A DNA stretch of 64,000 nt from Planctomycetota bacterium (GTDB lineage: Bacteria; Planctomycetota; Planctomycetia; Pirellulales; UBA1268), in contig QWOQ01000005.1 in NCBI GenBank assembly GCA_003669585.1, positions 131,846 through 195,845 on the forward strand, given 5' to 3'. The first letter of the stretch is position 1; each line of letters starts with the position of its first letter. The notes beneath the pieces were generated by a model. That model saw only the letters and a program-made list of their open reading frames with translations. It ran no database searches and was not told the origin of the DNA. Of the stretch, positions 2,460-59,854 are shown one piece after another. The position numbers and the translations under genes were made by a program.

Positions 2460-4445
2460 CTACTCCTTGACGAGTGAACGAATCTCATCGGCAATTGCTG
2501 CTGCCGTCGGCACAACAGCCTGCTCGAGTGGTGGACTATACGGAGTCGGTGTAAAGACGCCTGTCAGTCGACGAATCGGAGCGTCGAGATCATCGAAACC
2601 AAAAGCGGCGACGTGTGCCGCGATTTCAGCAGCGAAGCCACAGGGTGCCGGTGGCTCATCAACGATCAGCAGGCGGCCCGTTTTGGCAACCGAGCGAAGA
2701 ATTGTTTCTGTATCGAGTGGCGAGACGGTGCGAGGATCGATGAGCTCGACAGATATGCCGTCGCGATCGAGTTGATCGCAGACCGATAGTGCCAGATGCA
2801 CCATTCGAGCAAGTGCCACAACGGTAATGCTCGTGCCGGATCGAACAATATTCGCTTGACCGAATTCAATTTCGTAGTCATCCGTCGGAACGTGGCACTT
2901 GGTTGTCAGAAGCTCACGGTGTTCAAGAAACATGACCGGATCATCACACCGCAGAGCGTAGGTAAAGAGTCCTTTGGCATCGAATGCGTTTGACGGCACA
3001 ACCACTCGCAGGCCCGGCACTTGGCCATACATTGCGTAATAACTGCCAGAGTGGTGGGTTGCGGCAGAATGGCCGATGCCGATGCATCCACGGAGCACGA
3101 TAGGCATTGTGAGACGACCGCTCGACATGTACTGAATTTTTGCAATCTGGTTTACGATTTCTCCAACCGAATCCAAAAGAAAGTCGGCAAACATAAAGTC
3201 GATCACCGGTCGACTGCCGGTCATGGCCGCCCCTCCGGCAAGTCCGACAAAACCTCGTTCGCAAATCGGCGTGTCGCACAGGCGGGTAGATCCATAAAGA
3301 TCATAAAGACCTTTGGTCGTCATGAAGTTTCCACCGCGCTCCCCAATGCCTTCGCCCATAACAAAAATGCCAGGATTGATAGCCATTTCATGTTGAAGTG
3401 CCTCGTGTGTCGCTTGCGTGAAGGTGATTATTCTCACGTCAGATGGCACGGAGGGAATTGTCGCAGCGCGTACTGAAATCGCTCGAGGTGCACTGTAGAT
3501 ATTTGCTGAAGCGAGCGATGCTTCGGGCAATGGACTTGCTTCGGCGAAGAGCCGCGACTGTGTCACAAGCGATTGAATCTCAGACTCGATGTGGATGATC
3601 CGGGCTTCGTCGATGCCAAAGTCGCTGAGCATCCGAGATCGCAGCGATAGAATCGGACAACGTTTTTTCCACTGTTCAACCTGATCGCGAGTTCTATAGG
3701 AGAAGTCCCCCATTCCTTCGGCATGCGCGCGAGTGCGGTATGTTTTGCATTCAATTAAGGTTGCGCCATCACCGCTGCGGGCTCGTGTCACCGCCTCGCG
3801 AGCGACTTCTGCGACGGCCAGTACGTCGTTTCCATCGACTTCAAACCCGGGCAGGCCGTAGTTACTTGCGCGACGACCTACTTCTGGAATGCCGCTGGAG
3901 TAGGTAAACGGCACCTCTGTGGCAAATTGATTGTTTTCGCAGATAAAAAGAACTGGGAGTTTCCAGATGCTCGCCATGTTGAGCCCTTCATGGAACGCGC
4001 CATTGTTGACAGCGCCATCACCGAAGAACGCTACAGAGACTCGCCCTGTTTTGAGAAGTTTTGAACTGTATCCGCCTCCGCATGCCTGAAGAATGCAGGG
4101 GCCGACGATGCCGCTGGTGCCCATCATGCCGATCTCGGGCGAAAATAGATGCATCGACCCACCTCGTCCACGCGAGCAGCCAGTCGCTCGGCCAAAGAGT
4201 TCAGCCATCAGTTCTTGCGGAGGCATTCCTTTTGCCAGAGCATGGCCGTGTCCGCGATGGGTACTGAAGATTGAATCGTCTCGATTCAGAAATGCACAGA
4301 CTCCTGTTGAGATTGCTTCCTGACCGACGTAGGTATGGCATGCTCCGAAAATGAGTCCTTGCTGATGGCAACGAGCCAATTCCTCTTCCGTAAGACGGAT
4401 GATGAGCATGGTGCGATAGAGGGCAAGCAGTTCGGATGCGTCCAT
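2460..4445 (-). CDS. 2-oxoacid/acetoin dehydrogenase E1, fused alpha+beta subunits
   Basis: HTYVGQEA, GRGGSMH, TPP-binding FFGDGA...N; beta part DTPICE, ELIDPRTVSPLD; start MDASELL chosen. Confidence 0.92.
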   Translation of the reverse strand: MDASELLALYRTMLIIRLTEEELARCHQQGLIFGACHTYVGQEAISTGVCAFLNRDDSIFSTHRGHGHALAKGMPPQELMAELFGRATGCSRGRGGSMHLFSPEIGMMGTSGIVGPCILQACGGGYSSKLLKTGRVSVAFFGDGAVNNGAFHEGLNMASIWKLPVLFICENNQFATEVPFTYSSGIPEVGRRASNYGLPGFEVDGNDVLAVAEVAREAVTRARSGDGATLIECKTYRTRAHAEGMGDFSYRTRDQVEQWKKRCPILSLRSRMLSDFGIDEARIIHIESEIQSLVTQSRLFAEASPLPEASLASANIYSAPRAISVRAATIPSVPSDVRIITFTQATHEALQHEMAINPGIFVMGEGIGERGGNFMTTKGLYDLYGSTRLCDTPICERGFVGLAGGAAMTGSRPVIDFMFADFLLDSVGEIVNQIAKIQYMSSGRLTMPIVLRGCIGIGHSAATHHSGSYYAMYGQVPGLRVVVPSNAFDAKGLFTYALRCDDPVMFLEHRELLTTKCHVPTDDYEIEFGQANIVRSGTSITVVALARMVHLALSVCDQLDRDGISVELIDPRTVSPLDTETILRSVAKTGRLLIVDEPPAPCGFAAEIAAHVAAFGFDDLDAPIRRLTGVFTPTPYSPPLEQAVVPTAAAIADEIRSLVKE

Positions 4446-5369: not shown

Positions 5370-6953
5370 CTATTGTGCCCACCAGTGCATCAGCGCTGGC
5401 CATTGTTTTTCGAAAAATACAAGGAGTGCGAGACCGAGATAAAAAATTGCACAGCATCCAACCCCGAGTGTTTGGTACCAGCGGGGACGAAGCTCTCGGG
5501 GCAAAAGCGTGTGGTTGATCCAGAGAAGCTGAATCGACGTGATGCCGATGGCGAGGTTGTTGAGGTTCGCGATGACGATGGTCATTAGTTTCGGAGTACC
5601 GTAAGTGCTAAAGAGGTAGGCGCAGACAAGGGACCAAAGCACATAGCTTGCGAGAATCCCATAGTAGATTTTTTTTACGTCGCGAGGACGAAAAGAATCA
5701 CGAACGCGTTGATGAGAAGTCCAGATGGCATCTGTCCATCGACGACTGAAGTCATCGATGATCGACATCTGGCTCGGTAGCATTACCGCGATACCGGCAA
5801 AAAGAGCAGTGATCCAGAGAAGTTTTGTGACTGCAGGAGCCAGACCCGGCGCCAATCGCATTCCGTCTGCAGTAATAATTGCCGCAGACCATGCAAGACC
5901 GCTTTCCTGAAGAGTGGAGTAGGGGGCGAATCTGATCGACATCAACGCCGGAAGCGCCATGCCCATAAAACAACCCGGCCCCCAAATATAGATCTGATCC
6001 GTCAGAATGTATCGCCACCAACCACGCCAGCGCCGGAGGTTGTCAGCGTTTATGGGAAAGACTGTGCCGACGTGGCTCAAAGTTACGTGAGTGCCGCCGA
6101 CGGCACTGCCAATGGCCCCAACGAGACTCCCCATTCCCCAGCCTTTGTCGCGTACAAAATTGCTGTAGGTTGAATTCGATAATCCACCGCCGCCAGCATA
6201 GCCAGCAAAGGCACCGAGCACAGCGATATGCGCCATGGACACTGTTGGCCATTGTCCATACTCGTAGTAATAGCCAAACGCGTTGACGAGCGTTTCACCA
6301 GATTGGCCATCGGAAACGGGAACATTTCCAAACTTTACAAATCCACTGAAGATCTGCCACCACTGATACGGCTCGACAAAACAAATTCCGATGAACAGAC
6401 AAAAGCCCAGTACGAACAATACTTTCGCGGCCATCACCGTCTGCAGCATGTTGTAGACTTTTCCTCCAACAAGAATCGGAAGTGCCACTGCCAGAAGGCA
6501 TGCATAGGCCAGGCCGATCACAAGCCACTTATCGTCAGCGGTTGGTGGTCGCCCTAACACCAGCGAAGCGATGATCGCCGCACCGTGAGTTGAGAGTCCT
6601 GGAATCAGGGCACTGCCATTGAGCAGCAACATGAACCCCATCCAAAGACCAGGCCCCGGTCGCATGCGCATGAAACCGGTAAAGACTGGCTCGCCGCAGT
6701 AGAGTGCGTAGCGGCCACACTCGAGGTTGTAAAAGACTTGCAGCACGATTGCGACCGTCGCAATCCACATGAGTCCACCGCCATATTTCGCAGTGATTTC
6801 TGGACCAAAAAGCCATTCGCCGCCGCCGATCTGAATTCCCATCATGACGATGCCTGGACCGATAAAACTTTTCCAGTTTTTCCATGAAAGGGGCTTCGGT
6901 TCAGGAAGGTCAGCGGTATTCCAGGTGGGAATGGGGGAGATTGGTGGAAGCAT
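5370..6953 (-). CDS. Nramp/APC-superfamily-like membrane transporter
   Basis: GPGIVMMGIQIGGGEW motif, many TM segments. Confidence 0.7.
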   Translation of the reverse strand: MLPPISPIPTWNTADLPEPKPLSWKNWKSFIGPGIVMMGIQIGGGEWLFGPEITAKYGGGLMWIATVAIVLQVFYNLECGRYALYCGEPVFTGFMRMRPGPGLWMGFMLLLNGSALIPGLSTHGAAIIASLVLGRPPTADDKWLVIGLAYACLLAVALPILVGGKVYNMLQTVMAAKVLFVLGFCLFIGICFVEPYQWWQIFSGFVKFGNVPVSDGQSGETLVNAFGYYYEYGQWPTVSMAHIAVLGAFAGYAGGGGLSNSTYSNFVRDKGWGMGSLVGAIGSAVGGTHVTLSHVGTVFPINADNLRRWRGWWRYILTDQIYIWGPGCFMGMALPALMSIRFAPYSTLQESGLAWSAAIITADGMRLAPGLAPAVTKLLWITALFAGIAVMLPSQMSIIDDFSRRWTDAIWTSHQRVRDSFRPRDVKKIYYGILASYVLWSLVCAYLFSTYGTPKLMTIVIANLNNLAIGITSIQLLWINHTLLPRELRPRWYQTLGVGCCAIFYLGLALLVFFEKQWPALMHWWAQ

Positions 6954-50451: not shown

Positions 50452-53400
50452 TCAGGGGAATGTAGCAGCAGCAGTGGACGCTGGGCGAATGCAGCGGAAC
50501 TGCTCACTGTGAACAATCATGAGTAAGACATCCGACCAGCGGCCGCCGTCGACCATGGTCTTCGTCAGTTCGTTGACCAGCTTCCGATCGGAAAGCTGCA
50601 CAGCGCGTCCCAACGCGTAGCCCGTCAGTTTGTGAGCGAGTTCTCGCAGTAAGTCCTTACGCCGCGGACCGGCGATATAGTCGCGCAGGCCAACGAAGCC
50701 ATCGATATCGACGCCGTCACGCGTGGTTGCCCTGGCATCACCAGGCTTCTGATCTTTGGCGGGCCGCAGTCGGCCGAGGGCGTCGAATTGTTCAAGCGTC
50801 ATGCCGTAGGGATCGATGCGGACGTGGCAGCCGGCACAGGCTGCTTCCTGACGATGCCGCTCGGTGATCTCACGCACGCTGAGTCCGTCGGGCGGAGTCT
50901 CCGGCAGCGGTGGCACGCCGGGCGGGACCTTCGGCAGCCGCTCGCCGATCAGCTGAACCACCCACGCGCCACGCTTGACGGGGCTCGTACGGGACGCCGC
51001 TGACTGCTTGGCGAGCACCGCGCCAAATCCGAGCAACCCGCCGCGACCGTAGGCTGAAACCTTCTCGACGCGACGCCACTGCGGACCGGTGACGCCGGGG
51101 ATCCCGTAGTACTCGGCGAGGAGATCGTTGGCGACCACCGCGTCGGCTGCAATCACGTCGCCGACCGGACGGTCGTTCACGAGCAAATCCGCGAAAAATC
51201 GCACCGGCTCTTCGGCCAGCGCGTCGCGCACAGCCGGCGTGAACTCGGGAAAGTGCTTCAGGTTCCGGCCGTGGTTGGTGACGAAGTCCCGCACGCCCAG
51301 CCAGCGGGCGCCGAACTCCGCGGCCATGCCCTGCACCCGAACGTCGGTCAGCATCCGTCGCAGTTGCTCCTCCATGACCGCCGGCTCGTGGAGCCGCGCG
51401 GCCTTCGCCCGCAGTTGGTCGTCGGGAATCGAGTCCCACAGTAGGAAACTCAGCCGCGTCGCCAGTTCGTCGCCCGAGACCGGCTGCCAGTGCGGTCCCG
51501 GCGCGGGTTGTTCCGCCCGATAGAGGAACCAGGGCGACGACAGGACGCGGGCCATTGCGGCACGGAACGCCGGATCATGCTTGGCGCCTTCGGCACGGTC
51601 GGCGCGGTAAGACGTGAGGATCGCCTTCCGCTCGTCGGCGGCGAGTGGGCGGCGCCATGCTCGGGTAGCGAAGGCTAGTAGCGTCTCCAGATGCCCCGGC
51701 TCCGCAGCGACTTGAGTCGCGAGAAAGGCTTTCTCCTCACGTTTGATCTGTTCCTCGAACAGCTGGATGTAGAAGAACATGATCCGCGCGCCGTCGTTCG
51801 GCTTGCGGTAGTACTGCACGAGTCCCTCATACGCGATCGGGGTGGCGAACGCTTGCTCGCTCACAAACTCCAGTTCGCTCCACAGCCGGTCGATCTCAGC
51901 CCGGCCCGCCTCGTCGAGCAGGAGCCGACGCAGCGGCTCGTCTTCGCGGCGGTACAGGAAGACGCTGCCTTGAGCGTCTCGCGGGATGATCGGTTGAAAG
52001 AGGACCGCTGGCGGGAAGAGAGCACGAAACTCCGCCGCCGGCCGCGCCCGTTCGGCGGCGACGCGTGGATGCACGATCTGCGCGGCATGCGGGTCGCCCA
52101 CTTCAGCTTTGGCGACCGGCTCAGCCAGATTGCCGCCGCCGCCTGTGGCACCGATCAGGAACGCTTCAACGGAGGCCGTTTCCGGACTCGCTTCGTCGAG
52201 GCTCACATCGGCGCGGAGAAACCGAGGCAGCGTGAGCGCCTTCTGCAGATCTGCTGGCAGTTTCGTCAGATCGATGATGACCTCGGTACCGGCAGCCGTG
52301 ACGAGAGCAGACTTTGGCACCGGTCGCCCCTGCGGGTGATGGCCGAATTTGAGTCCCGATGCTTGCTCGACGACCGCCGCCAGTTCTGGATGCTCCGCAA
52401 ACACCAGCGGCGGACCGTCACCACCTTCCAGTCGCAGCCGGTCCCAGACCACAAAGGTGTTGGGCTGAGCTGGCAACGCAACCATACGGAAGAGCGGTTC
52501 ACGGGCGGCGCCTTGCACCCGCTCACGAGCGACCACGCGACGCAGATCCTCCCAGGCGGGAAAGCCATTGCCAACCGCCATGGCCGCATTCTTCCCGTAG
52601 TTGCCTTGAAACAACTGGTCCTGCGCGGCCTTGATCGCCGCCAAGACCGGTGCCGGATCGGTGGTTGCCTCCCGCCACTTTTCTCGAATGTGGTCGAGCA
52701 GTGCCGGAGCCGGACCGGGATCCGGCAGATCAGTGGACGCACTGCCCAGATCGGCCAGCGCCTGCCCCAAGTCTGGAGCCGCGACATGTGACAGCTCGAA
52801 CGAGACTCCGTCGCCACCCGAGGGATGGGCATCGGCAACGCGGCCCGCGACCACTAACTCACCAGCAATCGGACTCGTCCAGGCGATCGCCACAGGTCGT
52901 TTCTGTCCGGGATGCACGAAGACCGATCGTGCGGGCAATGTCGTCCATACACTAATTGGTTCCGCAGCGGAGTTCACGAAGACCGAGGGTTCGGAACCGA
53001 GGCTCCACGATTTCAGTTCGGACTTCCCTGCGATACTGTCGCGGCGTTCGGTGAGGAACGTCGGGAGGGATGTCGTTTCCAAAAAGCTCCAGCGGGCCTC
53101 GTGCTTGTCCGACCAGGGGTTTCCCATCAGCAGATTGGGCACCAGATCGGCGACGCTCCAGGTTCGCCCATCAGCGGCTGTTTCGTGGATCGTCCATTCG
53201 ACGAGCGTGCTGTCGGCCCCGTGATTTTCGTTCGGAAGCACAGTCAAGAGGAGCAGTTCGCCACGCTCGACCAAGACCTTGTGCTCGAAGGGAACAGAGC
53301 CCCCTTCCGCAACTTTGGACTCCGCAAGGACACGTTTCGACGATGCCCAACGGGACTCGATCTTTGGCAAAGCGGCCTTGCGTCGTTGCTTCTCGGCTTC

Positions 53401-54342
53401 AAACTGGGCCGTCTTCTCCCGCCACTGCTTCATCCGAGCATCGACTTCCGCTGACGGTAACGACGAGGCCGTCGTGCCGCTGAGCCCCGCCCAAAGCGCG
53501 GTCAGGTAAGTCGTATTAAGCTTCTCCTCGGCGGCCACTCCAGCGATGTCGGCGGCCCCGCCGCTGGTGAACTTGTCGCGGTAGCGCAGGGTCGCCGCGA
53601 GGTGCGCTGCTAGCGGCGGCTCTCCATTGGGTCCGGCATAGCGAGCGTGGAAACTGCGGAGCGGCTTGAGAGCCTCCTCAGTCCAATCCGGGCGTTCGGT
53701 GGAAGGGGAAAATCGGAAACCGCCGGGCAGGAGCACTACCCGCGCGGCGACGTCACGAGCGGCGTGGTGATAGCGTTCGACCAGTTCGGGCGTGACCGGC
53801 ATCGCCTCCCCGACGTTGGCAAAGCCCTCGCCGCCGACGCTGTCGACGGGAAACTCGCGAGCCTGTGTTGGTCGCATGTCTACGCCGGTGAGATCACGGA
53901 CCGCGTTGTCGTACTCCGTGTTGCTCAGTCGACGCAGCGTGACCTGCCCGGGATCACCGGCCCGCGCGGCCGCCTCGGCATCGAGTGCCGCCGTGATCCA
54001 GCCCAGCAGTTGCTCCCTCTCGGCCTCACTTGGCTGCGGCGCGTCTTTCGGCGGCATGTCGCCCAGTCGCAACCGGTCGGCAACGTCACCGAGCAGTTTG
54101 GGCTTGGCGAGTATCGCCTGGGCGGAGCCAAAGCCCGTGAGATCGAGATCGTTATCGTTGGGCATTTCCCCGTGGCAATTCCCGCAGGACCTGACGAGTA
54201 GCGGCTGGATCTGTGTGGTATACGTTTGCGCGAGGTCGTCTGCACTATCGGCAGACGCGGCCGCGAGTGTGAGAGAGGCAATAAGCAGCACAGCGCAAGC
54301 CGTCCGGTTCCGCCGTGCCCCTACTTCTATGAGGCATCGCAT
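50452..54342 (-). CDS. Large DUF1592/DUF1588 family cytochrome c protein
   Basis: CGNCHG, LRRLSNTEYDN, ELATRLSFLLWDSIPD, RTSPVKRG, CAGCHVRIDP. Confidence 0.9.
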   Translation of the reverse strand: MRCLIEVGARRNRTACAVLLIASLTLAAASADSADDLAQTYTTQIQPLLVRSCGNCHGEMPNDNDLDLTGFGSAQAILAKPKLLGDVADRLRLGDMPPKDAPQPSEAEREQLLGWITAALDAEAAARAGDPGQVTLRRLSNTEYDNAVRDLTGVDMRPTQAREFPVDSVGGEGFANVGEAMPVTPELVERYHHAARDVAARVVLLPGGFRFSPSTERPDWTEEALKPLRSFHARYAGPNGEPPLAAHLAATLRYRDKFTSGGAADIAGVAAEEKLNTTYLTALWAGLSGTTASSLPSAEVDARMKQWREKTAQFEAEKQRRKAALPKIESRWASSKRVLAESKVAEGGSVPFEHKVLVERGELLLLTVLPNENHGADSTLVEWTIHETAADGRTWSVADLVPNLLMGNPWSDKHEARWSFLETTSLPTFLTERRDSIAGKSELKSWSLGSEPSVFVNSAAEPISVWTTLPARSVFVHPGQKRPVAIAWTSPIAGELVVAGRVADAHPSGGDGVSFELSHVAAPDLGQALADLGSASTDLPDPGPAPALLDHIREKWREATTDPAPVLAAIKAAQDQLFQGNYGKNAAMAVGNGFPAWEDLRRVVARERVQGAAREPLFRMVALPAQPNTFVVWDRLRLEGGDGPPLVFAEHPELAAVVEQASGLKFGHHPQGRPVPKSALVTAAGTEVIIDLTKLPADLQKALTLPRFLRADVSLDEASPETASVEAFLIGATGGGGNLAEPVAKAEVGDPHAAQIVHPRVAAERARPAAEFRALFPPAVLFQPIIPRDAQGSVFLYRREDEPLRRLLLDEAGRAEIDRLWSELEFVSEQAFATPIAYEGLVQYYRKPNDGARIMFFYIQLFEEQIKREEKAFLATQVAAEPGHLETLLAFATRAWRRPLAADERKAILTSYRADRAEGAKHDPAFRAAMARVLSSPWFLYRAEQPAPGPHWQPVSGDELATRLSFLLWDSIPDDQLRAKAARLHEPAVMEEQLRRMLTDVRVQGMAAEFGARWLGVRDFVTNHGRNLKHFPEFTPAVRDALAEEPVRFFADLLVNDRPVGDVIAADAVVANDLLAEYYGIPGVTGPQWRRVEKVSAYGRGGLLGFGAVLAKQSAASRTSPVKRGAWVVQLIGERLPKVPPGVPPLPETPPDGLSVREITERHRQEAACAGCHVRIDPYGMTLEQFDALGRLRPAKDQKPGDARATTRDGVDIDGFVGLRDYIAGPRRKDLLRELAHKLTGYALGRAVQLSDRKLVNELTKTMVDGGRWSDVLLMIVHSEQFRCIRPASTAAATFP

Positions 54343-54466
54343 CAGATTCGCTCCTTGGCTCTCGATATGCTTGCACAGTTCGGCCGTCACCGCAGCGACA
54401 TCAACTTTTGCCAGTTTGTCCACAATGAGCTGGTGGCTTTCGACTCCGGCCTTCCACTCTTAGGAT

Positions 54467-54502
54467 AAAGGATAGCCCGGTCAACGGCACTTCCACAAGC
54501 GT
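54467..54502 (-). repeat. 36-bp module-junction site, copy 5
   Basis: Minus strand ACGCTTGTGGAAGTGCCGTTGACCGGGCTATCCTTT. Confidence 0.9.
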
Positions 54503-54639
54503 CGAACCTGTCAAAGTGATGCTCTCGGCATCAGCGAACGCACCCTTTGGAGTTTGACAGCCCCTCGCGGTTCGATTCCCTGTGTGCGGTGTGGTCACGG
54601 GAAGGCTTGTTTACAACTGAAGGCCTAGAGATGGCCTTG

Positions 54640-54786
54640 CGCTGCGGCAACGTCAGGCTTCGGCATCCGCCTCACCAGCAATAGTCTGCGCTTACTGTCA
54701 CTGTTTACTGAACCGACTGCCTGCGGGACACACGAAAACCCAGGTAGTAGTAGCGGCTCGACGGGCCGCGGCTGACGCGGAACGCC
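54640..54786 (-). repeat. Orphan copy of FGE-sulfatase 3' end plus downstream flank (direct repeat of 55953-56102)
   Basis: Encodes AFRVSRGPSSRYYYLGFRVSRRQSVQ* and ~65 bp of shared downstream sequence. Confidence 0.88.
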
Positions 54787-54872
54787 CGGAAGTTGGCACA
54801 AGAGCAGGTGAACAATGGCGGCAGACGCTTCAACAATCCGAGTCCCTCAACACAGAGGAGCCGAAGAGGGGT

Positions 54873-55694
54873 TCACCCGATTTTTATCAATAATCCCTCG
54901 ACTGTCGTCGACGAGTACGATTTCAGTGAGAGCGCGGCCCCCTTCACGCTCGTAACTCCTGTTGACGTTAATTTCGCAGACCCCGTTCCATTAATTTCAG
55001 CACATCCTGCGCTGACGGTGTAATTGCCGGCTGTGACTTTCCTTGACAAACATGTTAAGCCATCCATTCCCGCAACAGTCGTGTCCATGGTTACATAGCA
55101 TCCCGTTTCCTCGCCAATTATTTTCTTAACAGCGAGAGCTAGCTTGGTATTTTTTCCGTGCGAGGCTATTCTATCCGTTGCCGTTTCACATTTTGTTGAT
55201 GTGTCAATAACGTATCCCGGGCCTTTTTTTACCGTTACGCTATTCGCATTGGATATATCGATCTTGAATCCCCCCACGGGCAGAGCCCCCCCAAGCAACG
55301 GAAGAAGTCCGAAAGCGCTAACCTGTAATCCCGACGTACTGGAAATATTTGCTCCAACGACAGCGGTCAATTTCAGGCCGTAGTGACTACTCGAACCAAA
55401 GCCAGCCTGCACGCTGGCCGAGTTTCCTTCCAGGAAACTGTTGCTGTTGCCAAAATGCACCCCCCTTTTGGTTCCCTCAAGAAACCCATAAGAATCACCT
55501 TTCTGTGTGTTGGCACTGTCTCCAATCTGCTCTTTATAGCTGTCGCCTGTTTGAAGCTCGGCCGAAGAACCCTTCGTGTTAAAATTCGCGGACTCTTCTG
55601 TTATGCCGGTTGTGTTACCGCTGAATCTAAATTTTTTCTGCCCGGAACCAAAATTATCCGTAAACCATCCGGTAAATTTTTCTAAGGTCGTCAT
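54873..55694 (-). CDS. Gly/Ser/Thr-rich protein resembling a VgrG/gp5 C-terminal beta-helix
   Basis: 8-residue periodic repeats (LQTGDSYK/EQIGDSAN/TQKGDSYG), ends TTVEGLLIKIG; RBS AGAAAGGA; AT-richer than neighbours. Confidence 0.55.
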   Translation of the reverse strand: MTTLEKFTGWFTDNFGSGQKKFRFSGNTTGITEESANFNTKGSSAELQTGDSYKEQIGDSANTQKGDSYGFLEGTKRGVHFGNSNSFLEGNSASVQAGFGSSSHYGLKLTAVVGANISSTSGLQVSAFGLLPLLGGALPVGGFKIDISNANSVTVKKGPGYVIDTSTKCETATDRIASHGKNTKLALAVKKIIGEETGCYVTMDTTVAGMDGLTCLSRKVTAGNYTVSAGCAEINGTGSAKLTSTGVTSVKGAALSLKSYSSTTVEGLLIKIG

Positions 55695-56017
55695 GGGGAG
55701 ATCCTTTCTAACGAGCGAAATGATTGAAGTGAATAAATTCGTGCACCAGGCTATCACAGAAAAACTTTTCCCAAGCCATCATCTCTCTACAATCCCAAAA
55801 ATAAATGTGTCGGTAACGAACATCAGAACAGACTATTTTCTGTTTTTAGATGTGTTCAAAAAATGTCAAACACCCTAACCGATTTCTAACTCTTTGGTCA
55901 CCGGGGTGAGCTTACGCTCGAGACGTGGGACGGGTAGCGATGAGAGCTGCCTCGCTGCGGAAAAGTCAGGCTGCGGCATCTGCCTCACGAGCAATAGTCT
56001 GCGCTTACTGTCACTAT

Positions 56018-56788
56018 TTACTGAACCGACTGCCTGCGGGACACACGGAAACCCAGGTAGTAGTAGTGGCCCGACGGGACGTAGAAGCTGTTGCGGAGCG
56101 CCGACCGACAGCCGCCTGGATAGAACCACCAGCCGCCTCCGCGAAGCACGCGGGACGAGCCCTCTTCGGGGCCGATTGGATCGACACCGCCTCTAAGTTT
56201 TCCGTCGTACCAATCCGAGCACCACTCGAACACGTTGCCGTGCATGTCGTGCAAGCCCCAAGGGTTTGGCTTTTTCAAGCCAACCTCGTGGTCGTATTTC
56301 TCGTCAACACTCTTAAAGTTGTGGTCGAACCACGCATACTCACCCAACTTCGATTCATCATTGCCAAATGAAAATGCTGTTGTTGTTTCTGCCCGACACG
56401 CATACTCCCACTCCGCTTCTGTCGGCAGACGATACTCTTCATCAGCTTTCAGCTTCCCGGACTTACGTTCAATCGCTGTCAGCTTCTTGCAAAACTCTGT
56501 GGCTTCATCCCAGCTCACATACGTTGCCGGGCAGTTCTTGTCAGCCTGTATGGAGTCTTTCCCTTTCCAAGGCTCCGACTTCATCACGCTCTTCCACTGC
56601 TCTTGAGTCACTCCTGTCTTGCCAAGCCCGAATGGCTGCGTCAGCGTCACGGAAACTTGTGCCTCGTCGTCTTCACGAGTCTTTTCGCTTTTAGGACTGC
56701 CCATCGTGAACTTCCCTGCTGGAATCTCAATCAACTCCATCCCAATTGAATTGATTACGCTCGAGAGCTTCACGCCCTGTGTACACAT
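56018..56788 (-). CDS. FGE-sulfatase (SUMF1) domain protein, candidate DGR target
   Basis: NSIGMELIEIPAGKFTMGS, RLPTEAEWEYACRA, PNPWGLHDMHGNVFEWC, RVLRGGGW, LGFRV. Confidence 0.92.
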   Translation of the reverse strand: MCTQGVKLSSVINSIGMELIEIPAGKFTMGSPKSEKTREDDEAQVSVTLTQPFGLGKTGVTQEQWKSVMKSEPWKGKDSIQADKNCPATYVSWDEATEFCKKLTAIERKSGKLKADEEYRLPTEAEWEYACRAETTTAFSFGNDESKLGEYAWFDHNFKSVDEKYDHEVGLKKPNPWGLHDMHGNVFEWCSDWYDGKLRGGVDPIGPEEGSSRVLRGGGWWFYPGGCRSALRNSFYVPSGHYYYLGFRVSRRQSVQ

Positions 56789-56911
56789 TGGAATTCCCCT
56801 TGAAAGTATGGTGATCGGGGGGATTTTACACACGGGACGCTGGACGGGTAGTTGTGCACACTTTACTTTGTGATTTTTCTCTAGTTATGGCTTGTTTTGC
56901 CGCTTAAAGCC

Positions 56912-57135
56912 GAGCCGAAGAGTGGATCATCCGCAACCAGTTTTGAAGGCGCAACCCGTCGGCCTACACTCGCACACAGATGGCCTTGCGTCTGGAGGCG
57001 ACCATCGCGGCACGGGCGAAGGCGAACGTCAAGCGTGGAGCAGGATCCTGAGTTTCGGTTCGTCAGAAATCTGACAACCCGATCGACACCAAGCGTGAAA
57101 TCGCCACGCTCGCCGGCGTCTCGCAAGACATAGCG
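56912..57135 (+). pseudogene. ParB-like phage/plasmid protein remnant
   Basis: AEEWIIRNQF*RRNPSAYTRTQMALRLEATIAARAK...QKSDNPIDTKREIATLAGVSQD with in-frame stops. Confidence 0.6.
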
Positions 57136-57494
57136 CAGGCCTTCGCTGTGCAGATGAATCGCATAAAAAAATAAACATGATCTGCTTTACGCTTTCGCTA
57201 TGCTCGCCAAGGCCCTGGCTCCGAAGAGCTGCTGAGTCTGAAACGCTGTTAGGCGTGATCCTCGAAGGCCGTTTCTCGTCGAGTTGTGTCAAAATGAGGC
57301 TGCCCCCGCTGTAGACGATCCAGAAACACAAATTGTTGGCGATTGGATGGTCTTATAATTACAGCGTCTGCCTGCTGGCCGATGTTCCCGATGGCAAGCG
57401 CCATGACGGTCCGCCGCAGCGAATGATTCGGCGCGATGGCGTGAAAGCGGCCGCTACGGGAATCAGAGAGAGGCCGCAGTTCATCACACGGAAT

Positions 57495-57640
57495 GAGACG
57501 GATTGGATGGGCAACACATCGAAAGTAGCCCTGCGAGAATATCTTGATGACCGATGACCGATGACCACAGACCACGGACACGCATTTTGATGCGGCAGTG
57601 CGGGGGGGTGAAAAACCGCTGCAATGCGTTGCAGCGAGTG
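57495..57640 (+). pseudogene. C-terminal remnant of a tyrosine integrase next to the tRNA
   Basis: DWMGNTSKVALREYL...TDTHFDAAV resembles the WxGNS..VA..HY..TD.HF end of planctomycete integrases; interrupted by (GATGACC)3 at 57546-57566. Confidence 0.55.
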
Positions 57641-57716
57641 CACGCAAGGGTGGGGCCTAGAGCCGCAACCACACAACCGAAAAAAAAGAAACCCCTGTTT
57701 TGCAGAGGCTTGCAGA

Positions 57717-57740
57717 GGGGTTGCGATTTCTTGCAACCCC
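57717..57740 (-). terminator. Hairpin downstream of tRNA
   Basis: GGGGTTGC-N8-GCAACCCC directly after the tRNA 3' end. Confidence 0.45.
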
Positions 57741-57746
57741 CCATAA

Positions 57747-57820
<74 letters not shown>

Positions 57821-58207
57821 ACATATTAAAACAGTCACACAAGAGTGTCTGAATCAGTGCGTTACTATACCGGCTGCAGTGCCGTCTTGAAAGTACCTGT
57901 GAAAAAGAACTCTCTTCGTATTGTTTTGACACTGACAACAAAGGACATTGGGCGTCTTGAGGCCCAGACTTCTGAAAAACATTGCGATCGTTGGCTATGC
58001 GGCAAAACCTGCCTAAACTGCCAATCTCATCGTTGAAATAAAAGATTTTTCTACGTTTATGAGTTTGAATCCCATTTTCAGCATCGAAAAAAACTCTGTA
58101 TTTTGTCGATACTTCAATGCAGCGGTAACGTGAGAACATCGGGGGCAACAAAGGTTGCCACTGACATTGATTCTCTTCCGTCGATGGTTTGATTCATGTG
58201 AGTTGAA

Positions 58208-59854
58208 ATGGATTTCCCAAACGATTCCAAAAAACCATCGCTGCCCCGAAAGCCAAGAGCGCCAGCATTTCCCGACATCGCAATTGGCAGTGTGCTTGTG
58301 GGAGGTCTTCCGTGGAAGGATGCAAACGCATCGAAGACTGAAAAAGAGAAGTTAGGCGACATCAGTTCATCGGTAAAAAAGAAGAACCGTCAAGGAAAAA
58401 AAGAACCTGAATCTGCTGAAACTTTGTTCGAACGATTTATTCGATCAACGCCCGCGTGGACTGTAAGTCTGTCGGTGCACATGGTCGTGGTTCTCATTCT
58501 TGCGCTGTGGAATGTGCACCATGAAATTCCAAAGACCATTCGGTTAACCATGTCGTTCAACGCTGGTGTTGATCGTACCGATGACAAGCGGGTGGATATT
58601 CCGTCGATCGCATCAGAAGAGATTCCTGAAGAGACTGAAATTGTGATGACAAACGAACCTCTGGTTGAAGATCCAGAGGCGTCACCTTCGGAAGTGCCAA
58701 TAACTGTGGATGTCAGTTCGATGGCTTCTCATGAGGCGCCCTTGGTGATGGGAACTCCGCTTGCAGGTCGCGAACCGGGCAGCAAACAGATTCTCATTGC
58801 AGCGCACGGAGGATGTGATCGCACCGAGCAAGCCGTGGGAAAGGCGCTTGAGTGGTTAGCCCGGCAGCAAAACAAAAAAACCGATCTCTGGAGTCTTACT
58901 GGCCCTTACAAAGATGGGGGAAGTCAGGAAAACCAACTCGCGGCCAGCGCGATGGCACTTCTGGCATTTCAGGGAGCTGGAAACACTACCAATCAAGGGC
59001 CGTATCGAGATGTGGTTCAGCGGGCGTGGGGGAAAATTCTTGCCAAGCAAAACCCGGACGGTGTCTTTGAAGTTGGAAAGGTTCCTCTGCAGCACAAACA
59101 CTATTCCCATGCGCAGATCACGATTGCCCTGTGTGAAATGTATGGAATGACAAAGAATCCAATTTATGAAGAACCAGCGCGACGGGCAATTGCGTACGCG
59201 ATCAATTCCCAAGGCCCCGATGGAGGTTGGAGGTACGAACCGGGAAAGCCCGGCGACATGTCGATGACGGGTTGGTTCATGATGGCACTGAAGAGCGCCG
59301 AAATGGCGGAGATCCCGGTGCCGGCTGAGTCGTTCGTTCAGATCAACAATTTCCTCGACCTCGTGGCCGAAAATGACGGAGCCAGATATGGCTATCAACG
59401 TCCAAATCATAATAAAAAACCAGTTGCCATCACCAAGGCAGTGTCTGCCGAGGGTTTGCTTTGTCGGCAGTATCTTGGATGGAAGCATGACGATCCAAGA
59501 CTGATTGCCGGAGTGGAATTGCTTCTCGATGCACCGTTGGACTTGTCGGGAGAGAAGGATTTTTATGCGTGGTATTACGTTACGCAGGTCTGCCATCACA
59601 TCCAAGGCTCGGCGTGGAAGAGATGGAACTCGCAGATGCGAGATGTTTTGCCAGATGCTCAAGTTGAGAGCGGTTCAGAACGCGGAAGTTGGGATCCGGC
59701 ACTCGATCATTGGGGAAGTCAAGCAGGCAGAATTTTTACGACCTGCATGGCAACCTACATGCTTGAGGTTTATTACCGGCATCTGCCGATCTATCAACAA
59801 AAAGCTTCACAGAACAAAATCATTCTTTCCGATACATCGCACGGATCGAATTAA
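58208..59854 (+). CDS. Prenyltransferase/squalene-oxidase repeat protein, membrane-anchored
   Basis: SLSVH TM segment, ALEWLARQQ, QNPDG, QGPDGGWRY, GSWDP, LEVYYRHLP. Confidence 0.85.
   Translation: MDFPNDSKKPSLPRKPRAPAFPDIAIGSVLVGGLPWKDANASKTEKEKLGDISSSVKKKNRQGKKEPESAETLFERFIRSTPAWTVSLSVHMVVVLILALWNVHHEIPKTIRLTMSFNAGVDRTDDKRVDIPSIASEEIPEETEIVMTNEPLVEDPEASPSEVPITVDVSSMASHEAPLVMGTPLAGREPGSKQILIAAHGGCDRTEQAVGKALEWLARQQNKKTDLWSLTGPYKDGGSQENQLAASAMALLAFQGAGNTTNQGPYRDVVQRAWGKILAKQNPDGVFEVGKVPLQHKHYSHAQITIALCEMYGMTKNPIYEEPARRAIAYAINSQGPDGGWRYEPGKPGDMSMTGWFMMALKSAEMAEIPVPAESFVQINNFLDLVAENDGARYGYQRPNHNKKPVAITKAVSAEGLLCRQYLGWKHDDPRLIAGVELLLDAPLDLSGEKDFYAWYYVTQVCHHIQGSAWKRWNSQMRDVLPDAQVESGSERGSWDPALDHWGSQAGRIFTTCMATYMLEVYYRHLPIYQQKASQNKIILSDTSHGSN

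Follow-up and report, generated by a model that had tools for sequence, protein, structure and literature searches.

The window described here, 64,000 nucleotides of a Planctomycetota bacterium (contig QWOQ01000005.1, positions 131,846 to 195,845), contains on its minus strand a gene of the formylglycine-generating enzyme (FGE)-sulfatase family and, more than a kilobase downstream of it, an orphan copy of the 3′ end of such a gene. We judge it probable, at roughly 0.6, that the variable loops encoded by this gene and its relatives are relics of a diversity-generating retroelement (DGR): the loops would once have been diversified by a DGR that has since been lost, and the orphan would have been left behind when the body of a tandem sister gene was replaced. 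From the comparisons given below we infer the former activity of a cognate DGR at this locus, its loss (as opposed to its absence from the assembly) and the replacement that left the orphan. For the annotation of the window, the locus is a decaying gene cluster and not an active hypermutation cassette. The source genome (4.27 Mb in 18 contigs, 94.9% complete, 52% GC) is the sole member of its genus among the genomes compared.

A repeat search found one long direct repeat in the region, 129 nt in length and 92% identical, at 54640–54768 and 55953–56081; the copies are 1313 nt apart and both are read on the minus strand, and a gapped MAFFT alignment of the minus strands stretched the homology upstream to about 54790 and 56102, respectively. 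The gene copy, within the open reading frame (ORF) 56018–56833, ends in ...CRSALRNSFYVPSGHYYYLGFRVSRRQSVQ before its stop codon, and the orphan copy, which has no gene body in front of it, ends in ...RAFRVSRGPSSRYYYLGFRVSRRQSVQ before a stop codon at 54705–54707; the ending YYYLGFRVSRRQSVQ is common to both. With the gap placed opposite the TTC codon of the gene, the loops differ (gene/orphan) as CTC/TTC, AAC/GTC, TAC/CGC, GTC/GGC, GGC/AGC and CAC/CGC, which amounts to eight substitutions, all eight at codon positions 1 and 2, together with an indel of one codon that the orphan lacks; shifting the gap by one codon gives 10 substitutions, likewise all at these positions. Between the YYY motif and the stop codon (48 nt) there is a single difference, the synonymous TTC/TTT, and the first 65 nt past the stop contain six, the homology stopping after CCGCAGCG. 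The divergence in the loops (8/33) exceeds that in the flanks (7/113; Fisher P = 0.006). An earlier account of this DNA, made from the letters alone (the sequence-only reading), had described the direct repeats, the eight loop substitutions and the single synonymous change, and we found all of these as described, with the codon indel in addition; its two negative statements, that neither copy resembles a template and that the window contains no reverse transcriptase (RT), are correct as well. Neither copy can be the template of the other, because the mismatches lack adenine specificity in either direction. Nor is the divergence between the two copies confined to template-adenine sites, because it includes the codon indel, the third-position change and the six noncoding changes.

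The arrangement of the repeats exists in nature and is not an artefact of assembly, because single contigs of 1343 nt with no differences from the window span 54705–56047 in two metagenome runs from separate studies (X1 and X4); in a third run (X7) this span is represented by shorter contigs, again exact. The uneven metagenome depth, and the contig breaks at 54705 and at 56018–56047, are an effect of the multicopy tail.

The gene belongs to a family of about 15 genes in this genome, where a tblastn search gave 31 hits and where tandem arrays occur on contig C8. Fourteen full paralogs were aligned for the family statistics. They share 49–72% amino-acid identity, with differences along the entire length; most begin with a Sec or lipoprotein-type signal peptide, and all end in CRSA-x-R-xxxx-PS-x-R-xxx-LGFRVARSQS-x-Q followed by the stop codon. 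In many of them the stop is followed by a conserved noncoding element of ~65 nt and then, in the arrays, by a leader motif before the next ATG. Truncated or degenerate tails make up about eight of the 23 tail copies in the genome, those other than the orphan lying at C1:111.4k, C1:115.8k, C17:145.7k, C8:505.7k, C8:458.8k, C6:1.3k and C13:131.1k. Framework deviations from the consensus number 2–32 per paralog out of 103 positions, with almost none at a consensus A, and have the appearance of ordinary decay.

For the analysis of codon usage, hypervariable columns were taken as those with at least five residue types, and 16 such columns at the C-terminus were compared with 33 comparably variable columns upstream in the 14 paralogs. 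Codons ending in C account for 173 of 221 (78%) at the C-terminal columns, compared with 106 of 453 (23%) upstream, and the upstream share reaches only 32% among residues that have an NNC codon as an option. Lys, Glu, Gln, Met and Trp together occur 10 times in 221 in the loops, as against 163 times in 453 upstream. The contrast in NNC codons has a Fisher P of 6e-43, a value that, like the other family P-values, is overstated because the paralogs are related, although the effect sizes are large. Among the 29 variable nucleotide positions of the last 47 codons, all but one (28) fall at codon position 1 or 2, and for the nine closest paralogs third-position deviation from the consensus is 8% in this segment, compared with 19–26% upstream. 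The NNC pattern reported by the sequence-only reading from two copies is real, and far wider than had been noted, running through all 14 aligned paralogs.

These figures bear directly on the explanation that no retroelement was ever involved, and that the pattern was produced by point mutation, with diversifying selection acting on the ligand loops and a local preference for C-ending codons. Such an origin would agree with paralogs that differ along their whole length, at 49–72% amino-acid identity, and with the failure of the searches described below to find an RT or a cognate template. It does not explain why C-ending codons rise from 32% upstream to 78% in the loops for the same residue types, why the five residues that are one third-position step away are almost absent, why the variable nucleotides fall so consistently at positions 1 and 2, or why third positions are more conserved where the residues vary most; it also leaves as coincidence the 13/13 match with the AAC codons of a template from a relative (see below). 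The low third-position deviation is what would be expected from a common template re-copying the segment after the paralogs had diverged, and the opposite of what diversifying selection acting on point mutations would be expected to leave. We consider selection alone the least probable of the explanations weighed here. Judged by all the sequence criteria that do not require the template, the loops are variable regions of the DGR type.

The comparison with relatives supplied a template, although not the cognate one. A pattern scan of metagenomes gave 17 loci: seven templates, all of a class with the tail GFRLAL and none of them cognate, three variable regions of the family, and seven chance matches in unrelated genes. 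In a metagenome-assembled genome (MAG) of a related planctomycete there are both the family tail (L073) and a DGR cassette (L077, equivalent to G426:C356) in the order FGE target with variable region, HRDC gene, RT and start of the template, the full template being present on L064 and L066. When the L066 template was compared with the family codon by codon, 13 of its 13 AAC codons fell on hypervariable columns (hypergeometric P = 9e-9), and each of the 15 aligned hypervariable columns of the family corresponded to a template codon with A as its first or second base. The framework codons TGC CGG TCG GCG, CGC, CCG TCG, CGC and CTG GGC TTC CGT are nearly identical in DNA between this template and the family. 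The tail of the template, GFRLAL..., differs from the GFRVARSQS of the family, and there are 20–28 non-adenine mismatches against the family variable regions; because of these two differences, the template is a homologue and not the cognate donor. That variation is limited to template-adenine sites is supported in this way, through the NNC statistics and the template of a relative, there being no cognate template to compare. Two genomes of the same taxonomic family hold intact DGR cassettes, with AAC-rich templates of the FGE type directly downstream of RT genes, at L049:5451-5601 (G002:C87) and L051:6237-6363 (G020:C72), which could be used for comparison.

Searches of the genome itself for the components of a DGR gave uniformly negative results. 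A six-frame search of the 4.27 Mb with PF00078 gave no RT match, while the controls were detected; tblastn with three DGR RTs from relatives gave nothing in the genome better than E = 0.06, and tblastn with the HRDC protein of a relative gave only noise (E = 0.28 or worse), Avd not having been searched for. A scan of the genome for at least seven in-frame AAC codons found 17 windows, none of them template-like, and none of the 34 copies recovered from the genome by blastn was AAC-rich. Beyond this genome, the inferred 42-nt template, allowing up to three mismatches, was found in none of 401 genomes of the order; three viral scans found nothing, and a scan of the genome collection with the family tail gave seven loci in five MAGs, all of them variable regions or orphan tails and none a template. 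As it stands, this genome does not belong among those with a complete or active DGR system. The claim of the sequence-only reading that both copies are fed by a template repeat and RT elsewhere is therefore not supported, since neither was found in the genome and no cognate template was found in relatives or collections; what survives of its DGR interpretation is the NNC signature, the fold and the match to the template of a relative. It had held that the absence of a template and an RT from the genome or relatives, together with paralog differences away from template adenines, would refute it, and half of this condition holds, neither a template nor an RT having been found in this genome.

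In present populations the loops look frozen, with no sign of ongoing diversification among contigs. The organism is present in lake metagenomes of 20 runs from 8 studies. In three of the four runs examined (X1, X4 and X7, from three lake-metagenome studies), the loops of the orphan and of the gene match the window at every nucleotide. The fourth run, X11, yielded a variant contig in which the only differences in the gene loop are two synonymous third-position changes, at 56120 and 56123.

Several considerations weigh against the view that the DGR has been lost. A DGR cassette, itself a repeat, could have remained unassembled, or could reside on an unbinned phage or plasmid, and it could have been missed because the genome is 94.9% complete and in 18 contigs, with several family genes at contig ends. 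The pattern scans required an exact match to the inferred template, so that a divergent template would be missed. The population comparison used contigs, and Logan contigs drop rare variants, so that low-level ongoing diversification would be invisible. Finally, the low third-position divergence, together with the excess of differences between the sister loops (8/33 compared with 7/113), suggests that diversification continued until fairly recently, after the tandem duplication.

A DGR missing from the assembly might, then, still act in trans to diversify the family, whether it lies in the unassembled 5%, on a phage or plasmid or in a strain-variable island, with the conserved tail and the 65-nt element that follows it acting as the homing site. 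The framework third positions are two to three times better conserved than those upstream, the sister copies differ mainly at positions 1 and 2 of NNC codons, and the tail and element are kept across genera, a similar G-rich stretch following the variable region of L077, all of which speaks for such a DGR; the MAG with the family tail (L073) also has a DGR, and both trans-acting or incomplete loci (PMC10907252) and remote targets (PMC5758913) are on record. Set against this, no RT, HRDC gene or template was found in a genome that is 94.9% complete, and the DGR of L077 has a different tail and hence is not the cognate one. Both loops are identical in three studies, and the variant in X11 has only its two synonymous third-position changes. 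Most paralogs have several non-adenine framework changes, the orphan offers selection no reading frame, and the gene in the window has no signal peptide. We regard continued diversification by a missed DGR as rather unlikely, and the relic interpretation as the better account.

The element that follows the stop codon is conserved, with the tail GGTTTCCGTGTGGCCCGCAGTCAGTCGG, not only among the paralogs but also in two other genera (G024 and G050) and on metagenome contigs. In the window it is present directly after the stop codon of the gene (55942–56017, minus strand), this copy being common to the orphan, the paralogs, the two genera and the metagenome contigs, and again after the orphan (54628–54704, minus strand), as identified from the repeat and the alignments. 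A similar G-rich stretch, judged by eye, follows the genuine variable region in L077. No convincing structure was detected: an Rfam search of 53500–59000 returned nothing but a tRNA-Met, and no match for the element; alifold on 13 copies of the element gave -14.7, with no convincing helix or covariation; and DNA folds of five copies had z-scores of +1.31, +0.06, +1.89, -1.69 and -0.48, with no stable hairpin. Work on a Bordetella phage is reported to have shown that a GC-rich homing sequence (IMH) and a downstream recognition structure lie next to the DGR target. By analogy, the element might serve as the cis-acting site required by a DGR beside its target.

Carried further, this idea becomes the proposal that an unassembled DGR, carried by a phage or plasmid or variable between strains, continues to act in trans, homing into at least 14 dispersed paralogs, that the tail and the 65-nt element form a portable landing pad, and that orphans such as that in this window and those on G050:C301 are spare pads for new variable C-termini. 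We consider the proposal quite unlikely; if true, the number of targets would exceed the seven non-adjacent ones that are the maximum in the 2017 survey (PMC5758913). On G050:C301 (L047), at about 3409–3515 and 5865–5895, two orphan tails (NLGFRVARSQ...) with the element were observed after unrelated genes, namely a deaminase-like ORF and an ORF of 624 amino acids; both orphans have ~30 nt of non-FGE sequence in front in common, so that in that genome the unit has multiplied as a small repeat.

The gene in the window, assigned from its ORF (56018–56833, minus strand; likely start ATG at 56788) and from PF03781, is a paralog with the FGE-sulfatase/C-type-lectin fold. The match to PF03781 covers residues 33–264, with E = 4.2e-45 and a score of 154.8 bits, compared with the curated cut-off of 23.3. 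The closest solved structure is the variable protein TvpA of Treponema denticola (PDB 2y3c; E = 6.7e-27), and true formylglycine-generating enzymes rank behind this non-enzymatic protein (E = 2.5e-17). This is a fold that the sequence-only reading had called a common DGR target, and according to the 2017 survey it is the commonest one: the largest target category, 71 of 372, consists of variable regions of the C-terminal lectin-fold type located within FGE-sulfatase domains (PMC5758913). The variable-region-like segment of the gene, EGSSRVLRGGGWW...LGFRVSRRQSVQ and the stop codon, occupies 56018–56164 (minus strand) and has NNC codons at the positions that are hypervariable in the family. Alignment with the 5′ ends of two paralogs (56788–56875, minus strand) showed a deletion of 44 nt that has removed the ATG and nearly the whole signal peptide, the ATG at 56788 being a fortuitous in-frame start left after the deletion. 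Because the deletion took both, any protein still made from the gene would stay in the cytoplasm.

Downstream of the gene and its copy of the element lies the family 5′ leader, a promoter-like motif (55895–55937, minus strand) identified by alignment as a repeat that recurs upstream of paralog genes. It normally precedes a paralog ATG by ~25 nt, but here it runs into foreign DNA of lower GC content, with the junction near 55894. Between the repeats this DNA encodes an ORF of 273 amino acids (54873–55694, minus strand; 41–52% GC in windows, compared with 52% for the genome), which has no Pfam family and no PHROG match; the sole lead is a feature-based one from a protein atlas, to clusters of phage baseplate lysozyme and gp5-C beta-helix proteins (score 0.93), and there is one weak paralog at C17:153875-154570. 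Beyond it lies the orphan tail (54705–54791, minus strand, by alignment), consisting of the last ~28 codons of a variable region without the gene body. It is a sister copy of the gene tail, both having the derived ending SRRQSVQ and the codons TAC TAC TAC. After the orphan and its element, alignments judged by eye show, by partial similarity, a degenerate remnant of the family 5′ leader motif (54530–54627, minus strand), which suggests that at least three genes once stood here in tandem. The orphan, which the sequence-only reading had called an orphan variable-region copy, is indeed the tail of a variable region, but it is best read as a pseudogene, the remaining tail of a tandem paralog whose body may have been replaced by the foreign 273-residue ORF, and as one of the eight or so family copies that are truncated or degenerate.

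Direct repeats flanking a 1.1-kb segment of lower GC content that holds a phage-like ORF, with a tRNA-Met 0.9 kb upstream of the gene (57746–57821, minus strand), could also suggest a duplication of the attL/attR kind, in which a cassette with the 273-residue ORF inserted at the 3′ end of what was then a single FGE gene and brought its own copy of the target end. The two copies, however, differ by eight loop substitutions, a codon indel and six of 65 noncoding bases, there is no integrase in or adjoining the insert, and the repeated unit, which includes the leader motif, is the normal intergenic unit of the family; orphan tails elsewhere, both in this genome and in G050, lack an insert of this kind. 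An integration of this kind seems to us very improbable, and replacement of the body of a sister gene remains the preferred origin of the orphan.

On the relic interpretation, the events at this locus and in the family would have been as follows. A cognate DGR would have rewritten the C-terminal loops of secreted or lipoprotein lectin-fold binding proteins after the family had expanded, probably from a layout of target, HRDC gene, RT and template such as that in relatives, with a tail of the GFRVARSQS type. With a template containing AAC codons, error-prone reverse transcription would have placed random bases at codon positions 1 and 2, while the invariant framework was re-copied. The DGR would then have been lost from the lineage and, because the retroelement is no longer in the genome, the variable regions would be relics that evolve by ordinary mutation, duplication and decay. 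Duplications, deletions and insertions would now drive the turnover of the family, and orphan tails such as that at 54705–54791 would be what they leave behind. The two repeats would be the 3′ units (variable-region tail, ~65-nt element and next leader) of two tandem sister genes, of which the downstream one may have lost its body to the cassette with the foreign 273-residue ORF, becoming the orphan tail, and the surviving one its start codon and signal peptide.

Some further features of the surroundings were observed. Next to the cluster, at 50452–54423 (minus strand), lies a gene for a planctomycete PSD-domain protein of 1323 amino acids (DUF1592/1588/1587/1595/1585), in windows with 57–70% GC, compared with the genome mean of 52%. 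About 40–70 nt ahead of its start, at 54460–54494 (minus strand), is a dispersed motif of ~50 nt, ...CGCTCATCGCGGGTTCGACGCTTGTGGAAGTGCCGTTGACCGGGCTATCCTT, which has 25 occurrences in the genome, with up to four mismatches in a 25-nt core, and which recurs at four further places in the window (about 25432, 31256, 35184 and 36611). The same motif trails the tail element in the relatives G050 and G024-like contigs, and its metagenome depth is far above that of its flanks; it may be a promoter or other regulatory repeat. Adjoining the tRNA-Met, a short ORF (57333–57557, plus strand) with the ending ...DWMGNTSKVALREYLDDR reads like the C-terminus of a tyrosine integrase, an unverified impression from reading, and it has no Pfam match at E values up to 1; a similar stretch is found beside the tRNA in G024:C77. 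The integrase-like ORF and the tRNA-Met may mark an old integration site. Elsewhere in the genome, long tandem repeats of a 15-nt unit (CTCAACACCTCCAGG-like) stand at three contig ends (G000 C6:1-164, C6:32978-33273 and C18:1-241), and are probably one repetitive gene that breaks the assembly.

The family can be compared with several known systems. The TvpA/DGR system of Treponema denticola, with its remote targets, is alike in providing the best PDB match, in having related targets scattered in one genome (PMC5758913) and in the lipoprotein-type or secreted N-termini of many family members. In the account given by the 2017 survey, Treponema has the most non-adjacent targets, seven, with RT and template in the genome (PMC5758913), whereas here there are about 15 paralogs and neither RT nor template was found. 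According to the same survey, HRDC accessory genes occur in 4% of DGRs (PMC5758913); the HRDC-type DGR of L077 has the same loop architecture as the family, CRSA-x-R-xxxx-PS-x-R-xxx-LGFR, on a near-identical DNA framework, but it differs in its GFRLAL... tail. Thiohalocapsa PB-PSB1 has been described as having incomplete DGR loci, along with candidate remote targets that are diversified in trans (PMC10907252); it resembles the present case in having C-terminal lectin-fold targets without an RT or template of their own, and in expansion by intragenomic duplication; as described there, it has RTs and templates elsewhere in the genome and most of its loci are visibly diversified in metagenomes (PMC10907252), neither of which we found here. 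Birth-and-death evolution of a tandem multigene family would accommodate the arrays on C8, the truncated and frameshifted copies and the conserved intergenic units, but it does not by itself account for hypervariability restricted to NNC codons.

Mining for DGRs that is anchored on the RT misses remote targets (PMC8144416). Because the surveys start from the RT, they are blind to variable regions that outlive the retroelement or lie remote from it. A limited literature search, too narrow for the case to be called unpublished, returned no paper on relic variable-region families without an RT. The signature described here is recognisable by comparison of paralogs alone, from the restriction to NNC codons, the conserved third positions and the match to the template of a relative. 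If a trans-acting DGR does exist, the family would be among the largest target sets known. If, as we think probable, it does not, the framework decay and the pseudogene tails would provide a rough clock for the loss of the DGR, and the family would be a clean case of a large set of lectin-fold proteins that keeps the signature of adenine mutagenesis after both the RT and the template have gone.

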